From an uncultured virus (IMG/VR IMGVR_UViG_2061766007_002127) (lineage: Duplodnaviria > Heunggongvirae > Uroviricota > Caudoviricetes), in IMG/VR virus record IMGVR_UViG_2061766007_002127: 64,000 nt of DNA; one strand, given 5' to 3'. Positions 1-45,093 of the stretch are shown here, piece by piece. How positions within the stretch are numbered: position 1 is the stretch's first letter; each line of letters opens with the position of its first letter. The translations under genes were made by a program, and so were the position numbers. Under the pieces are notes generated by a model that saw nothing but the letters and a program-made list of their open reading frames with translations, was not told the origin of the DNA and made no database searches.

Positions 1-2322
<2,322 letters not shown>

Positions 2323-35182: not shown

Positions 35183-35271
35183 AATGTCTCTCCTTATTGG
35201 ATTTCACGTGCGATGTTTGAAAAACTTCTACTGTTATTATACACTCAATCAGTATAAGCATAAAATGAATG

Positions 35272-35301
35272 GGGACGGATTCGGTCATGCAAATCCGTCC
35301 C
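35272..35301 (-). terminator. Hairpin/terminator after clpA
   Basis: GGGACGGATT...AATCCGTCCC perfect 10-bp stem just after the clpA stop. Confidence 0.6.
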
Positions 35302-35312
35302 TTCATTTTTCC

Positions 35313-37278
35313 TTACGCCTTCTTGAATTCAAGCGTTATCGCGCCGTCCTTCTCGTCCACGAGGATGTCGCCGCCGTTCTCGGAAAGCTCGCCGAACAGT
35401 ATCTCGTCTGCGACCTTCTCCGTGACCTCGCTGTTCACGATGCGCTCCACTGGGCGCCCACCAGCCTTCTCTGCGACTGCCTTGTCCACAATCCATTTCT
35501 TGGCGTTGTCGGACAGGCTGACCGTCACGTTCTTGCCGTCGAGGGCAGACTGGAGGTTTCGGATGTTCTTGTCCACAATCATCCCCATGACCTGCTCGTT
35601 CAGGTTGTTGAAGTAGAATACGTCCGTGAGGCGGTTTCGGAATTCGGGGCTGAACTTCTTCCTGTATGCGTCCTCGATTGTCTTCTGGGTGCGCTTCGTG
35701 TCGTCGGACTCGCTCTTCGTGAAGCCGAGCGTGCTGGACATCGCAGAGGCGTTGGCGTACCCGACGTTCGTGGTCATCAGGACGATGGCGTGCTTGAATG
35801 AAGCCTCGCGACCGTGGTTGTCGGTCAGCTTGCCCTCGTCCAGAACCTGCAGGAGCAGGTCGTACACGGACTTGTTAGCCTTCTCGATTTCATCCAGCAG
35901 GATGACCTGATGGGGGTTCTTGATGAGGGGCTCCGTCAGGGCGCCAGCCTGCTCGTAGCCGACGTAGCCAGCCGCAGAGCCGATGAGCTTGGACACGCTG
36001 TACTCCTCCTGGTACTCGGACATGTCGAGCTTCGTGAAGCCGATGCCGAGCTCCTTGGCGAGCGTCTTGGCGAGCTCGGTCTTGCCGACGCCAGTCGGTC
36101 CAAGCAGGAGCGCACTGAGGGGTCTCCCAGGATTCGCCAAGCCAGCCTTCTGCATGCGCACCTGACGAACAATCTTGTCCACTACCTCGTCCTGACCGAA
36201 CAGGTTGGTCTTGATTCGGTCGCCGAGTGTCTTGAGCTTCGTCTTGTCGTCGGTCTCGACTGAAATCTTCGGGATGTTCGCGATGGAGCAGACGACCTCC
36301 TCGACATCCTCCTTCGTGGCTACCTTGCCGTCCCTGATGCCAGAGTGGTACTTGGCGCCGATTTCGTCGATGATGTCGATTGCCTTGTCGGGGAAGAACT
36401 TGCCGACAATGTAGCGTGCGCTCAGGTCGACCGTGTACTGGAGAACCTCGTCGCTGTACTTGATTCCGTGGAACTCCTCGTACTTGGGGCGGAGACCCTG
36501 CAGAATCCTGAACGTCTCGTCCTTGGATGGCTCGGACAGGTCGATTTTCTTGAACCGACGGCACAGAGCCTTGTCCTTCTCGATTCTGTTCTTGTACTCG
36601 TCATATGTCGTCGCGCCGATGATTTTGAGCTGACCACGGCTCAGGTACGGCTTCAGGATGTTCGCAGAGTCCATGGAGCCTTCGCTTGAGCCAGCGCCGA
36701 CGATTGTATGCAGTTCGTCGATGAACATGATGACGTTCTCGTTGGACGAGGCTTCCTTGATGGTGTTTTCGAGGCGCTCCTCGAACTCGCCNNNNNNNNN
36801 NNNNNNNNNNNNNNNNNNNNNAGATGGTGCGACCAGCCAGCGATTTCGGAACTTCATCATTGGCGATTTTCAATGCAAGTCCTTCTACGATAGCTGTCTT
36901 ACCACAATTGTGGGAAATGAAATCGTTGGAAAAATAAGCATGTTCAACGCTATCCACTTCAATGTCATAAACATGCTTGTTTCCAATAGCTTCAATATTG
37001 TCAATCTTTTCAATTGNNNNNNNNNNNNNNNNNNNNNNNNNNNNNAATTCCATAGCCTGCTTCCATTCGCCTTCTTCCGTAAAAAGAAGATGGTCGAAGG
37101 AACAATCAATGTTTGCTTGCTCGGTTGAAATTCGATAAGAAGACCTTTCTCCTTTATCAACGACGATTTTTACTCGTTCCCAGCCATTTGGCGTTTCAAC
37201 TTCATATTCTCCAGGTTCATTGTTGAACAATTGGTAGAATTGTTCGATTGTCATTACTGATTCTTCATTTTTTTTCAT
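35313..37278 (-). CDS. clpA: ClpA C-terminal half, preceded by the C-part of a split intein (IntC 37278-36907)
   Basis: AGGAG RBS; intein blocks VETPNGW, DCSFDHLLFT, VYDIEV...YFSNDFISHN|CGKT; then Walker B FIDELHTIVGAG, IGATTYDEY, second AAA module GPTGVGKTELAK, LDMSEY, LLDEIEKA, FSPEFRNRL; no ClpB M-domain. Confidence 0.9.
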
Positions 37279-38493
37279 GTTTGATTCTCCTTTGATGAAT
37301 TGATTTATATCTGTTGAATTTAACCAAGCTTTTTTCAGTCAGTTTTATCTCTTCATTTTCGACCATTTTCTCAATGACAGAAAAATCCATGATTTCGACA
37401 TCGGTTATAATATGAACCATATTTTTCATTTTACAATACAGGATGGCAGCATTTTGTTTTCTTACGACCAAATCCAGTTGCTGAAGCTTCTCTGGCTTTA
37501 TCTCAACGACGATTTTATTGTCGATGAGGAAATCTGGACAATAAGACCTCTCGTGCCCGTCCTTGTCAAGATATTTTATCCTGAAATCTGGAGTATTGTC
37601 GAGGCTTTTCCATTCATGCCCTTCCTTCTCGATTACATTCACCATATACGACAGTTCCCTGAGGCTTCTGAAATACCAGCCCTTGTACCATCCTGAAATC
37701 CCGTTGCCAGAACCTTTCGGAGCTGGCTTCCCGTACATCGGATTGTTCTTTCCTTTGCTTCGCTGTGATTGCTTTTGTATCATTTTTTTATATCTTTCAT
37801 CTGCTTCTTCTTTTCCGTATTTTTCAAGCCAGACATCATATACGGAGCGACCATGCATTCCATTGTTTTTTCCATAATGCGAAGTTTTTTTAGCCAATTC
37901 TTGTTTCTGTTCTAGAGTCGAATNNNNNNNNNNNNNNNNNNNNNNNNNNNNNNNNNNNNATTTTTCATCTGCTTCTTCTTTTCCGTATTTTTCCTCATAT
38001 ACTTTTTTCATTGATTTTCCATAAAACCAGTTGTTTTTTCCAGAATTGCGTTCTGAAGCTTTTTGCCTCATTTCTTCAGTCCATACTCTATGCTGGATTT
38101 CTGACATNNNNNNNNNNNNNNNNNNNNNNNNNNNNNNNNNNNNTCTTTTTTCTTTCTGCTAAATTCTTGTTTTTCTTCCAATGTCATTTTCTCATATCGT
38201 TTTTTTCCAGATTTAGACAGTTTTTCTCTTATTTCAGGATGAGTTTTAAAATTTCTATTGGCAATGCAACTATGGCATATTTTATTTTTGCTTTTGCTAA
38301 AAAGAATTACATCTCCACATTCACAACATACATAACCTGTTTGATTGGGATTACAATCAAGGCATTCGATTTCTTTTTCTTTCGCCAAAAGAAGATGCTT
38401 ACTTGTGATTCTGATTTTTTTACCACATTTACAACAATTTNNNNNNNNNNNNNNNNNNNNNNNNNNNNNNNNNNNNNNNNNNNAATTGGTCAA
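37265..38493 (-). mobile_element. Free-standing homing-endonuclease-like gene between the clpA halves (CxxC repeats + NUMOD3-like + TnsA-like PD-(D/E)XK)
   Basis: AT-rich; CCKCGK, CLDC, CCECG, CHSC; repeated GKNN(W/G/P)(F/M)(Y/H)G; GWYFRSLRELSY...YCPDFLIDNKIVVEIKP. Start hidden near a gap. Confidence 0.75.
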
Positions 38494-38509
38494 TGTGGAA
38501 TTGGAAATG

Positions 38510-39178
38510 TCATGAAATTTTTCTGATTTTCACAAGTGTATTTGCTTCAATGCAACCAGCATCGCCAACAATTACGCAACAGTTTCCTTTCTTCCTAGCC
38601 AGAATCTGCGCCACGCGCTCGCACTCCGTCTCGCGACCGATGAGTGGGTCGATTTTGCCGTCTCGGGCGAGTTGCGTCAGGTCGGTGGCGTACTTGGACA
38701 GGAATTCCGTCCCGACTGCGTTGCCTGACTTGTCCCTGAAGTTCCTGACGTACTCCTGCGCGTCGTCCTCGAAGATGCCGTGCTTGGACAGGAAGTAGGC
38801 AGAAGCCTGCTCCTTGTCGCTGAACAGCATGATGAACACGCAAAGGCTGTCAGGCTCCATCGAGCGCATCGCGCCAGCCGACACGGCAGACTGGATGAGC
38901 TTCGTGTATGCGTTGGTTGGGTTGATGTTGCCGATGTCGTTCGCCTTCTCGACGTTCTCCTCGATGTATTCGGCGACCTCCTTCTTCAGGTCGGACACGG
39001 CTTTCGACTTGTTCTTGTCCGTCGTGAGCTTCTTGACGAGGTTCACGCACTTCTCGTCGTTCAGCAGGACGTAGAGCATCTGCTCTGGGACGAGATAGGC
39101 GTACTTGTGCTTCTCGGCGTAGTCCTGCACCTTGTTGACGAGTTTCTTGATTTCCTCCATTTCGTGGTTGTTCGGCAT
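38510..39178 (-). CDS. clpA: ClpA N-terminal half ending in a 14-aa N-intein (38554-38513)
   Basis: Clp N-domain, then KYATDLTQLARDGKIDPLIGRETE..RVAQILARKKGNCCVIVGDAG|CIEANTLVKIRKIS-TGA. Confidence 0.9.
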   Translation of the reverse strand: MPNNHEMEEIKKLVNKVQDYAEKHKYAYLVPEQMLYVLLNDEKCVNLVKKLTTDKNKSKAVSDLKKEVAEYIEENVEKANDIGNINPTNAYTKLIQSAVSAGAMRSMEPDSLCVFIMLFSDKEQASAYFLSKHGIFEDDAQEYVRNFRDKSGNAVGTEFLSKYATDLTQLARDGKIDPLIGRETECERVAQILARKKGNCCVIVGDAGCIEANTLVKIRKIS

Positions 39179-39181
39179 GTC

Positions 39182-39373
39182 CTAATTCTCCTTTGAATCA
39201 ATTATCTGTATGAACGACTTCACCTTGCTCGCGACCGTCTGCGTCCATCCGAAGTGGTTCTGCAACTGGGTCGTCGTCGGGCTTATCCCGACCTTCCTGC
39301 ACTCTGCAATCCATGCAGTCGCGTCGTCTATGTTCTTCTTCCAGTCTATCCTCTCGCGCTTCTTGCGTTCCAT
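39182..39373 (-). CDS. Small HTH-like protein
   Basis: SPTTTQLQNHFGWTQTVASKV resembles a helix-turn-helix. Confidence 0.4.
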   Translation of the reverse strand: MERKKRERIDWKKNIDDATAWIAECRKVGISPTTTQLQNHFGWTQTVASKVKSFIQIIDSKEN

Positions 39374-39669: not shown

Positions 39670-40020
39670 TCACGCCTTCTCCATTGTGACCTTGAACTCC
39701 TCGTACCCTGCCTTCTCGGAAATCTCCCTCGTCAGGAGAAGCTTCGACTCGGCGATGCTCTTGGGGTACGTCCCTGCGATGCCCTTGCCCTCGTGGTGTA
39801 TCTTGAGCATCAGCTCGATTGCGTCCATGCGCTCCTTCTTGTAAACCCCGACCAGCACCTCGACCACGAACCCCATCGGGGTCACGTCGTCGTTGTGCAT
39901 GACGATGTTGTACTTGCCTGGAAGCTCCACCGTCGTCCTGTCCTTCACGGCAGTCGTCGTCTCGGTGTCGCCCTCGGTTGGCGTGATGTTCACTATGATT
40001 ATGTTATTTTTCTTCGCCAT
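39670..40020 (-). CDS. clpS: ClpS adaptor of ATP-dependent Clp protease
   Basis: KYNIVMHNDDVTPMGFVVEVL...AIELMLKIHHEGKGIAGTY...IAESK...FKVTMEKA. Confidence 0.92.
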   Translation of the reverse strand: MAKKNNIIIVNITPTEGDTETTTAVKDRTTVELPGKYNIVMHNDDVTPMGFVVEVLVGVYKKERMDAIELMLKIHHEGKGIAGTYPKSIAESKLLLTREISEKAGYEEFKVTMEKA

Positions 40021-40235: not shown

Positions 40236-40562
40236 CTAGTCGTCGAACTCTGCCTCTATCGTCAGCCCGATGTCGCCCTTGTAGTTCGGTCCCATCGAGT
40301 GGAGCCTCGCAGTCTTCAGCTTCGGCAGAGCCTTCCCGAGCAGGGCGTTGTCCTGCCTCGATATGTACCCCACGTGCCTGTAGTCTGCGCCGCCGACATC
40401 CAGACGGACGGCGATTGCGTTGCCGTCGTATGGGTTGTCTGGCTCCCTCTCAAGCCTTACATCGTACTTTCCACCATGCCTGTACCCCTTGAAGAAGTCT
40501 GACAGGACTTGCTGGCGCCCCTCGAACGTGACGCCCACGACATTGTAGCATTGGCTGGACAT
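40236..40562 (-). CDS. HIRAN domain protein
   Basis: VVGVTFEGR...LEREPDNPYDGNAIAV...HVGYI. Confidence 0.85.
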   Translation of the reverse strand: MSSQCYNVVGVTFEGRQQVLSDFFKGYRHGGKYDVRLEREPDNPYDGNAIAVRLDVGGADYRHVGYISRQDNALLGKALPKLKTARLHSMGPNYKGDIGLTIEAEFDD

Positions 40563-40619
40563 TTGAAACCTCCTTGCTGTTGTCCGTTGAAAAAAGAAAA
40601 TCCGTTTTCGTCGCCCATT

Positions 40620-40648
40620 AATATGGCGTATGAAAACGGATTTTCAAG
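40620..40648 (-). promoter_or_regulatory. Class 1 promoter upstream of HIRAN-clpS-clpA block
   Basis: CTTGAAAATCCGTTTTCATACGCCATATT. Confidence 0.6.
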
Positions 40649-40685
40649 CCGTGATTGAAAATTATTTTCAGNNNNNNNNNNNNNT

Positions 40686-41120
40686 TGTTGTTGACAAGGT
40701 AGAACAGGAGGTCGAGGCAAGCCTCTGCGTCCTCCAGACCACGGTGCGACCTGCTGCCTTCATCGCCGCCGTACACCAGACCGAACTCCCTGCACAGGCT
40801 CCCGAGCGTGTTGCGACCAGCCTGCCTCTTCTCGTCGTCCTCCTCGCCCTCCTCCTTCTTCCTCATCTTCCTGACGAGCTGGAGCGTGTCGATGGACTTG
40901 AAGTCGTGCAGGGGATACCCTGCCTCGGAAAGCTTCTGCTGTATCATCGGGATGTCGAACGAATTCCCGTTGTGCGTCACGATGATGGAGTTGCTCAGGT
41001 AGTCGGAAATCTTCTGGGCGCACTGCTTGAACGTCTTCTTCCCACGCCTTTCGGAGTCCTTGATGCGATGCACCTTCCTGACGAGGTACATCGACGAGTG
41101 CCCCCCGCCGAACATCCTCG
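40686..41120 (-). CDS. DEDDh 3'-5' exonuclease (DnaQ-like), ends lost in gaps
   Basis: KVHRI...IVTHNGNSFDIPMI...SIDTLQL...TLGSLCREFG...SHRGLEDAEAC. Confidence 0.8.
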
Positions 41121-41437: not shown

Positions 41438-42178
41438 CTAGAAATCATATGCCATGCCGAGACGGTCGAAGTCGACCTTCCCGAATTCGCCGTCGATGAA
41501 GAACACCTTCCTCGTGAACACGGTTCCGTTGTACTCCCCGTCGACGTTCTTCCTGTGTATGACTGCGCCGTACTTCTTGTACGTTTCGAGCGCGTTCCAG
41601 TCGACGCCATTCCCAAGGAGCATCGCCTTCTTCTCGTCGGTGTTCTTTTTGTCCAGTTGCTTCGGCGAGAAGTGAGCCTGCGCCAGACCAGACACGGAAT
41701 TGCGTATGCAGTCGTTCTGCCTCCACAGGATGCAGTTGAACACCTCGTCCCTGCTCGGCATGAACATCACCCTCGAGTCGAAGAATGCGTCTGGGCAGTC
41801 CTCTCCGAACAACTGCCTCGCGTACTTGTTGAAGAAGCACCCTGCCATCGACGCAGAGATGGAGCAGAGCTTCTGAATCCTGTTCCCGAACCACGGGTCG
41901 GAATTCTCGGACTGGTCGTTCCTCAGCACGACCGTAATCTCGTCCGACTGGACATACGCCATCACGGCGCTCTGTATGCTCTTGCACAGCTCGTTCGCCG
42001 TCACCTGCATCGCGTCAATCATCCTCTGGTCGAACGGCTTCACGCATCCAGCCCTCTTCACCCACGTGTGGAACGCGCATCCGTCCAGCCGAATCACGAC
42101 TGGGGCGTGTGGGTCGAGGCATCCTTCCTTCTCGGACTTCCGTTCGTACTCCTTCATCCTGTCTCCAAGCGTCATCAT
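41438..42178 (-). CDS. thg1: tRNA(His) guanylyltransferase Thg1-like protein (3'-5' polymerase)
   Basis: GDRMKEYE...VIRLDGCAFH...KPFD...YVQSDEI...WFGNRIQKLCSISAS...FDSRV...WRQNDCIRNSV. Confidence 0.9.
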   Translation of the reverse strand: MMTLGDRMKEYERKSEKEGCLDPHAPVVIRLDGCAFHTWVKRAGCVKPFDQRMIDAMQVTANELCKSIQSAVMAYVQSDEITVVLRNDQSENSDPWFGNRIQKLCSISASMAGCFFNKYARQLFGEDCPDAFFDSRVMFMPSRDEVFNCILWRQNDCIRNSVSGLAQAHFSPKQLDKKNTDEKKAMLLGNGVDWNALETYKKYGAVIHRKNVDGEYNGTVFTRKVFFIDGEFGKVDFDRLGMAYDF

Positions 42179-44126: not shown

Positions 44127-45093
44127 TTACGGATATAATATACCGTTAGAAAAAACTTGTGAAAAATTAGATTTCATTGGTTTCTCCTTTTCGACATTAT
44201 GGGGGACGGCAGATTCCCCATTCAAGAATGAGTCAAGTATGTTAATGGAAGCATTTGTATCTGCATCCAAAGCACATCCACATGAAACACACTCATACTT
44301 CTCTCCTTTTCTCGACTCCTTGTGGATTTCTCCACAATGAGAACATCTCTGACTTGTATAGCAGGCAGGAACAGTGGTCAAATAAGCACGGCTATTCTCA
44401 CACTTTTCCATCAGTCGCCTATGCAACAAGTCTATATTCCAATGAGCCAGCTTCTTGCGAAGCCATTTGCTCTTGCTCAATTTCTTTCCATTCTTTGTTA
44501 TATTCTTCAATTCCTCAATTACAATCAAATCATAATTCTCGATGCCAATCTGATTGATGCACCAACCGATGTAACATTTGATTTCTGCCAATGTCTGATT
44601 GTAATTATGACTTTTTTGAACTCTGTTTTCAAGTTTCTTTAAGAGATTCTTAAAATCAACTCCAATAAATCTTCCATCCGAAAGAGACATTAATTTGTTA
44701 ATGCCAATGTCAATTCCAAGACATTTTGTTCTCGAACTGATTTTGACAGGCTCTTCTTTTTCAAAGAATATATTCACAAAATAATTCTTATCGTTTTTAT
44801 ATAATGTTGCAGAAGAGCATTGTTTATATCCCTCTCGAATCATCTTATTATAATGCTTATGCTTTCTTGAAGGAAGAATCAAGCTAAATCTGTTACCAAA
44901 AACAGAACCAATCCTTATCCACAAGTCAAAGCTGTTGTTCCCGTCCTGAATCTTAATCAAGTCGGAGTTCAGTTCAATTGTAGAACCGTCGAAAACTGGC
45001 ATATTTACTCTATGTCTCAATTTTCTTCCAACAATCCAATCAGCATATTTCTTGTCTAAAATGCCAAAGATATTTCTGTTTTTCTTCTTGCAT
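44127..45093 (-). CDS. tnpB: TnpB RNA-guided endonuclease (5' end in gap)
   Basis: RuvC-I LGIDIGINK, RuvC-II IVIEEL, YTSQRCSHCG...YECVSCG zinc finger, RuvC-III DADTNASINIL; AT-rich. Confidence 0.9.

Follow-up and report, generated by a model that had tools for sequence, protein, structure and literature searches.

Natural atypically split inteins have an N-terminal fragment (IntN) of 15–37 amino acids (aa). The shortest characterised IntN is that of PolB16 OarG (15 aa); those of VidaL, AceL-TerL, and TerL CAT have 16, 25, and 30 aa, respectively, and that of the artificial M86 has 11 aa (PMC10189870, PMC13014065). Up to March 2026, the shortest natural IntNs were those of PolB16, which is slow, and VidaL, which is fast (PMC10189870, PMC13014065). 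Two sites are distinguished for natural atypical cuts: S1, directly behind beta-strand 2, as in VidaL and PolB16, and S2, behind the first helix (PMC13014065). Of the S1 split inteins, VidaL has been characterised as fast and cysteine-dependent (PMC13014065). The fractured genes described by Dassa et al. (2009) are mainly from phages and include cases without an endonuclease (PMC2677866). Here we analysed a stretch of 64,000 nucleotides (nt) from an uncultured virus (IMG/VR record IMGVR_UViG_2061766007_002127), hereafter the window, in which the clpA gene is split within the Walker A motif of its first AAA+ module (D1) by a cassette of an IntN, an endonuclease gene, and a C-terminal intein fragment (IntC). 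Of this gene layout taken alone we are nearly certain. It is also probable, as far as sequence can tell, that a VidaL-type split intein trans-splices ClpA and that the endonuclease drives homing.

The ClpA host protein and the 14-aa IntN, one residue below the published record of 15 aa (PMC10189870, PMC13014065), are new, whereas the fractured gene, the S1 atypically split intein, and the VidaL family are already known; the kind and the mechanism are conceptually not new. An earlier note on this DNA had ranked the IntN among the shortest natural ones, in agreement with that record, and had known of no split intein in an Hsp100/Clp ATPase. A literature search, with subscription-only papers and supplements outside its scope, likewise found none, nor any natural intein in a Clp ATPase. 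The words 'Clp' and 'ATPase' are absent from the text of Dassa et al. (2009) (PMC2677866), and PMC7824862 mentions an intein and ClpA separately. The locus resembles the fractured genes of Dassa et al. (2009) in that a free-standing endonuclease gene lies between the intein halves; however, the endonucleases there are GIY-YIG or Vsr-like (EDxHD) (PMC2677866), whereas NUMOD3 motifs are combined here with a D..ExK TnsA-like nuclease. The endonuclease type in that set describes its loci and is not a defining requirement.

Organization of the split clpA gene

All parts of clpA and its cassette are encoded on the minus strand. The N-extein of ClpA (38555..39178) comprises the Clp N-domain and the start of D1 and ends with ...VIVGDAG, the first half of Walker A. 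Its open reading frame (ORF; 39178-38510, 222 codons) encodes the ClpA N-domain, ...VIVGDAG, and CIEANTLVKIRKIS, and terminates at TGA. IntN with its stop occupies 38510..38554, that is, 14 codons CIEANTLVKIRKIS (38554-38513), beginning with the Cys1 codon TGC (38554-38552), and TGA at 38512-38510. A spacer with an assembly gap (38441..38509), which must hold the endonuclease start codon, is followed by a free-standing homing-endonuclease gene (37265..38440; ~395 aa after gap correction; stop TGA at 37267-37265). Inside the 3' end of this gene is the ribosome-binding site of IntC, AGGAG (37287..37291), and the ATG of IntC (37278-37276) comes eight bases past it, followed by a run of eight A (A8; 37275-37268). 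IntC (36907..37278) has 124 codons as scaffolded and 125 with the true gap, and carries the rest of the HINT domain, with block B CSFDHLLFT, block F VYDIEV, and block G SHN ending at 36907. The Cys+1 codon TGT (36906-36904) and GKTAIVEGLA follow. The C-extein (35313..36906) opens with CGKT, which completes the D1 Walker A, and continues with the remainder of D1, the second module (D2), the C-terminal domain, and the stop; its Pfam matches were AAA_2 (E 7e-52), AAA_lid_9, and ClpB_D2-small. Once the intein parts are removed, GDAG and CGKT join to restore a GxxGxGKT P-loop.

Relatives of the N-extein carry the Pfam domain PF02861 (Clp_N) and share 64–83% identity with uninterrupted ClpA proteins of 743–747 aa. 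The adaptor gene clpS lies upstream of clpA (39670..40020, minus strand; Pfam ClpS, E 2.9e-22). The locus therefore has the features of a ClpA/Hsp100 class I AAA+ unfoldase, namely the Clp N-domain, two AAA+ modules with Walker A motifs, the D2-small domain, and clpS upstream.

Confirmation of the split in contigs and diverged relatives

The scaffold that makes up the window contains 69 runs of N, 4,480 bases in total, and many of these runs are exactly 10 long. The lengths of these runs are not true, and five of the 69 fall in the clpA region. We took the true gap sizes from Logan contigs of four sequencing runs (X1–X4) placed on 35200-39300. X1 and X2 stem from a single bovine gut sample, from which the window was probably assembled, and X3 and X4 belong to two other studies. 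Wherever the contig comparison allowed a check, the scaffold gap lengths were off by -8 to +31 bases, and therefore apparent frameshifts over N runs in the window are not to be taken as real. The gap at 36792-36821 (30 N) is truly 44 nt long, with which the apparent frameshift in ClpA vanishes and the frame is kept; that at 37017-37045 (29 N) is 32 nt, with which IntC becomes 125 aa, as in its relatives. In the endonuclease gene, the gap at 37924-37959 (36 N) is 45 nt, which keeps the frame and makes it three codons longer, and the gap at 38108-38143 (36 N) is 28 nt, which merges two apparent ORFs into one frame. The gap at 38441-38483 (43 N) is 74 nt in X2 and X3 and contains the endonuclease start.

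A scaffold this poor, with 69 N runs of wrong length, leaves room for another reading, in which the locus is a contiguous maxi-intein with an internal endonuclease and its split look results from sequencing or assembly errors (miscounts at A5/TGA and A8, and gap lengths); A8 minus one base would fuse the endonuclease ORF to IntC. However, X1, X2, and X3 all cover both the TGA (38512-38510) and the A8 run (37275-37268), and there is no indel at either site in any of them. X3 is a single contig of 10,410 nt from an independent study that spans the whole region at ~98% identity. In addition, the gap-corrected frame in the endonuclease phase meets a TGA at 38492-38490, just before the 74-nt gap, as shown by frame arithmetic.

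The relatives argue in the same direction. A homology search with IntC gave nine relatives at 63–83% identity, all of which start at the same Met, and seven of which are 660–663 aa long, that is, IntC plus the C-terminal part of ClpA. On the other side, the protein ends exactly 14 residues past Cys1 in each of the four relatives with a complete C-terminus in the N-piece search (P0010, P0011/L006, P0012, and P0017/L005), so that the stop falls at the same codon in all of them; their IntN sequences are CVEANTLIRIRKVS, CVEAKTLITIRRIS, and, in two, CVEANTLIRIRKIS. At the DNA level, the stop after IntN is TAA in loci L005 and L006 and TGA in the window. In L006, the TAA is followed by an untranslated 90-nt spacer and a 331-aa endonuclease with its own ATG, and the IntC start, ATGAATCCG, which lacks an A-run, overlaps the 3' end of that gene. 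In L005, IntC starts only 34 nt after the TAA, without an endonuclease gene, and a TAG in the IntC frame precedes the ATG by 27 nt. The window, L005, and L006 share AC(A/G)TTTCC after the stop and CAAAGGAGAAT ahead of the IntC ATG, and in all three the halves lie on separate ORFs, with a stop after IntN and an own start and ribosome-binding site for IntC. The 34-nt spacer of L005 looks like the conserved 5' spacer joined to the final ~25 nt of the endonuclease gene; we read it as a loss of that gene in which the split intein was kept.

Because the contigs have no indels, the arrangement recurs in diverged relatives, and L005 and L006 have the same DNA layout, the split is not an assembly artefact. 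The contiguous maxi-intein is refuted by the contigs and by the stops and layouts of the relatives, and we leave it almost no probability. The arrangement is far beyond chance. Thus the main claims of the earlier note stand: its coordinates (minus strand) are all correct; a fractured clpA, interrupted in Walker A by an atypically split intein that has an endonuclease gene between its halves, recurs as a layout; and the 14-residue length of IntN is the same in 4/4 relatives. The alternative that it had named, an erroneous TGA together with a run of only seven A, is excluded by the contigs of three runs from two samples and by relatives with TAA and without the A-run, and is also countered by L005, in which stop and restart are kept without the endonuclease.

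A single cis-splicing precursor might instead arise by recoding, that is, by TGA read-through, frameshifting, or translational bypass. The window stop is TGA and the L005 spacer is only 34 nt long, as this would favour. TGA is the leakiest stop codon. Yet the stop is TAA in L005 and L006, IntN and IntC are in different frames, and the L005 IntC frame has a stop 27 nt ahead of its ATG. A Shine-Dalgarno sequence and ATG are conserved before IntC in 3/3 close loci, and in the window the halves are ~1.2 kb apart, with a complete gene in a different frame between them. We consider recoding extremely improbable.

Catalytic residues and intein type

Cys1, directly after GDAG, is invariant in 5/5 IntN sequences. 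The His of block B SFDH is invariant in 9/9 IntC rows, and in 5/5 rows of a set that includes the 35%-identical L008. IntC ends with SHN in the eight complete rows, and S-H is invariant in 9/9; the window row is one codon short in the IntC alignments, hence its terminal Asn (36909-36907) lies outside the alignment and was read from the DNA. The residue after SHN is C in all nine IntC proteins and T in L008. The GC content of IntC is 0.31–0.40 in every host versus 0.50–0.58 in the exteins. Likewise, GC in the window is ~0.56 in the exteins versus 0.26–0.43 over 36750-38550, a drop that marks the insert as foreign in composition.

A profile of five IntC sequences was compared with solved structures. 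The best match was VidaL (6vgv/6vgw; E 1.3e-20), in which IntC positions 5-124 align to chain residues 22-141; further matches were Spl DnaX (3.9e-14), gp41-1 (9.2e-14), and PolB16 (1.8e-4). The features of an S1 split are present: IntN has 14 aa, IntC has 125 aa, and the alignment with the fused VidaL chain places IntC position 5 at residue 22. On these sequence features, we class the element as a natural class-1 split intein of the VidaL type whose cut lies at S1, just after the second beta-strand.

The ClpA intein shares with VidaL (PMC13014065) the S1 site, with a very short IntN and a long IntC, and both are Cys-dependent. VidaL differs in that its IntN has 16 aa versus 14 here and in that the host here is a ClpA unfoldase; the sequences have clearly diverged, with many differing positions in the alignment. 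Splicing was measured for VidaL, whereas the ClpA intein is known here from sequence. AceL-TerL is an S2 case. AceL-TerL and TerL CAT are likewise natural split inteins with short IntNs in phage ATPase genes, but their IntNs are longer (25 and 30 aa, respectively) (PMC13014065). PolB16 OarG (8cpn/8cpo) is similar as a natural S1 split intein with a 15-aa IntN from a ruminant gut metagenome (PMC10189870, PMC13014065). It is nevertheless distant (E 1.8e-4), uses Ser1 and Ser+1, and has a 168-aa IntC and a PolB polymerase host.

The endonuclease gene

As scaffolded, the window has two apparent ORFs (38493-38068 and 38107-37265, minus strand) with NUMOD3 motifs and a TnsA-like nuclease. They are collinear with residues 6-102 and 115-385 of the 395-aa endonuclease of locus L019, and because of this collinearity and the true 28-nt gap we read them as a single frame. 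Since the corrected frame has the TGA at 38492-38490, the endonuclease starts inside the 74-nt gap. Its frame differs from those of both intein halves, and, judged by frame, neither IntN nor IntC is joined to it.

The predicted protein has a Cys-rich N-terminus, NUMOD3 repeats, and a TnsA-like PD-(D/E)XK nuclease domain. In Pfam, NUMOD3 matched with E 1.7e-8 and Tn7_TnsA-like_N with 25.9 bits, just below its cut-off of 26.5; at E <= 0.01, neither GIY-YIG nor Vsr families were among the listed matches. The D, E, and K of PDF...VEIKP are invariant in 4/4 endonuclease homologues and correspond to the canonical PD-(D/E)XK signature (D..ExK). An AlphaFold (AF2) model from four sequences was confident only in the nuclease domain (predicted confidence, pLDDT, 80–92). 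Foldseek with this model had TnsA (1t0f) at the top, weakly (E 0.027, probability 1.0), and no match at E <= 0.001. A search of solved structures (PDB) with the sequence gave nothing meaningful (best E 0.85). In PHROGs, one weak 'endonuclease' family was matched by the window copy (E 3.7e-6) and no family by the L006 or L007 copies. These weak but concordant results from sequence and model point to a nuclease of the TnsA-like class.

Insert-free clpA alleles

The earlier note had proposed a search for clpA alleles without the insert, and such alleles exist. A 1,553-nt contig of X4 joins 36888 to 38588 with 51 letters between. The extein bases in this interval number 33 (38587-38555) plus 18 (36906-36889), also 51, and therefore X4 represents a precise insert-free allele, without exactly 38554..36907. 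Among the 34 closest ClpA relatives of the N-extein (52–83% identity to it, one at 43%), 31 are uninterrupted (737–780 aa). Their +1 residue is T, V, or C, as in GDTGTGKS, GDAGVGKS, and SDPGCGKT. The other three, N-pieces of 509–515 aa, terminate within the second Walker A in a split-intein head. No ClpA with a contiguous intein (~880 aa) was among the 34, which is weak evidence of absence.

The uninterrupted ClpA P0185, which represents 115 member sequences, belongs with P0207 to a group with SDPGCGKT/GNAGCGKS and has Cys at the D1 Walker A +1 position, where the others have Thr or Val. The Cys+1 of P0185 and P0207 may be the footprint of a precise intein loss or a ready homing site.

Proposed trans-splicing of ClpA

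We propose that the cassette, composed of the 14-codon IntN with its stop, the free-standing endonuclease gene, and the 125-codon IntC with its own ribosome-binding site, would lead to two polypeptides, namely ClpA N-domain ...GDAG-IntN and IntC-CGKT-rest of ClpA. The 14-residue IntN would dock on IntC and complete the HINT fold, upon which Cys1, the block B His, the terminal His-Asn, and Cys+1 would perform protein trans-splicing. The product would be a ClpA of ~744 residues with an intact GDAGCGKT P-loop. The endonuclease would spread the cassette into insert-free clpA alleles.

Alternatively, the cassette may be real and the intein no longer splice, with clpA decaying or the two fragments associating without ligation. 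Splicing of the window intein is a prediction from sequence, the insert-free alleles are the majority (31 of 34), so that a phage could tolerate the loss, and a non-covalent rescue of an endonuclease-split phage nrdA has been described (PMC3045599). However, the catalytic residues are invariant over nine IntC and five IntN sequences that have diverged to 63–83% identity, both extein ORFs are intact in every relative, and the halves persist in L005 after the loss of the endonuclease. The ratio of non-synonymous to synonymous substitution rates (dN/dS, Nei-Gojobori) was 0.13 (L005 vs L006) to 0.18 (vs L007) for IntC and 0.09–0.23 for the 14 codons of IntN, thus about 0.1–0.2 for both halves; these values are rough, with dS saturated (proportion of synonymous differences, pS, 0.66–0.80), and give a rough indication that both halves are under purifying selection. 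An unexcised HINT domain of 139 residues would, moreover, presumably sit within the P-loop. We therefore regard a cassette without splicing as unlikely, although clearly less so than recoding or a contiguous intein.

Besides the saturated dS, several points weigh against trans-splicing and homing as proposed. Docking of the halves, trans-splicing, and homing are predicted from the sequences. The Pfam family Intein_splicing stayed under its cut-off for the window IntC alone (20.3 vs 35.8 bits). X1 and X2 probably come from the source sample of the window and hence are not independent support, and, with 40 of the 150 contig substitution rows considered, a base change at the TGA in X3 may lie among the others. 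The endonuclease start and 28 nt inside its gene lie in unread gaps of the window, where an in-frame stop could occur. All these points are included in our estimate that trans-splicing of ClpA by a VidaL-type split intein, with homing driven by the endonuclease, is probable.

Related split inteins in other ATPase genes

A first scan of viral contigs with the window IntC alone gave only four weak matches to blocks F and G (L001–L004). By comparison, the IntC profile searched against 1.84 billion cluster representatives gave 3,760 matches at E <= 1e-3, 453 at <= 1e-10, and 20 at <= 1e-30. In 79 of the best 150 (P0030–P0178), which were re-scored, the intein match begins within the first 12 residues, as in an N-terminal IntC. 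Most of those 79 have [CST]GK[ST] next, which is the second Walker A half of various ATPases; the hosts in the best-150 set (AAA+, DnaB-like, and terminase-like) were judged by eye. These sequences point to a large clade of S1-split inteins in P-loops. Contiguous mini-intein relatives are also present, for example P0068, P0116, P0121, and P0128.

A related intein is located in the D2 Walker A of ClpA in L007 and L018, with IntN tails of 26–28 aa and an endonuclease between the halves. In L008, a ClpB-like gene is cut in D1, with a 24-aa tail and Thr+1. The 432-aa P0002 has the D1-site IntC at its start and a second split-intein head, GSTG|CVTGDTKIRIRKIRDGVTPVKIVLDKQVVS, at its end, in the second Walker A; this tail agrees with that of P0193 in length and ending. 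The sequence suggests a ClpA in three pieces that would need two related split inteins. On one 329-kb IMG/VR contig, two genes are fractured alike (L018:3457-7152 and L019:4207-7257): L018 is a clpA in which the D2 Walker A is interrupted and the endonuclease has 279 aa, and L019 encodes another AAA-type ATPase, in which the cut lies at GCAG|C...|CGKT and the endonuclease has 395 aa.

A more extensive picture may be drawn from these loci, which we offer tentatively, since we rate it as possible but somewhat doubtful as a whole. The 14-residue IntN would be active and the shortest natural one; a large, mostly undescribed VidaL-like S1 clade would occupy the Walker A loops of phage ATPases; ClpA would carry a paralogous split intein in its second Walker A, with P0002 apparently a three-piece ClpA; and two ~50%-identical inteins would work side by side without cross-splicing. 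If this is true, the two ~50%-identical ClpA split inteins would be a natural orthogonal pair.

The phage host and its genomic context

L018 lies on the 329-kb IMG/VR viral contig and is syntenic with the window on both sides of clpA. The phage assignment of the window rests on this synteny, because the window itself has few hallmark matches. By its sequence context, the host of the cassette is a large uncultured gut or rumen phage. Megablast of a phage collection with the region gave no match, and a tRNA scan of the window gave 0 genes. Among 12 proteins compared with PHROGs, nine were window ORFs outside the cassette; seven of the nine had no family, and only a collagen-like tail-fibre ORF and a transposase matched. 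The former (982-2322, plus strand) matched collagen-like phage tail-fibre families (phrog_6320, E 8.7e-82), and with its low-complexity repeats is weak evidence of a virion gene. The latter (44127-45020, minus strand) matched transposase families (phrog_506, E 1.2e-34) and is another mobile element in the scaffold.

Outside the cassette, Pfam matched seven of 21 window ORFs (Thg1, RNase_T, ParB_N, DNA methylase, metallophosphatase, HIRAN, and HSDR_N) and listed no family for the other 14. Just upstream of clpS-clpA on the minus strand, 41438-42178, 40618-41115, and 40236-40562 encode a Thg1-like tRNA-His guanylyltransferase, an RNase_T-type exonuclease, and a HIRAN-domain protein, respectively; these neighbours are likewise present in L005 and L006.

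Discussion

Short IntN fragments are accessible to peptide synthesis and are used for protein labelling and semi-synthesis. A 14-aa, Cys-dependent relative of VidaL, with several natural variants and an endonuclease-free version, is a candidate for the short-IntN toolbox. For phage biology, the split clpA adds a protein-unfolding chaperone of huge phages to the enzymes of DNA metabolism as hosts of fractured genes, and one ClpA lineage appears to have been invaded at both of its P-loops.

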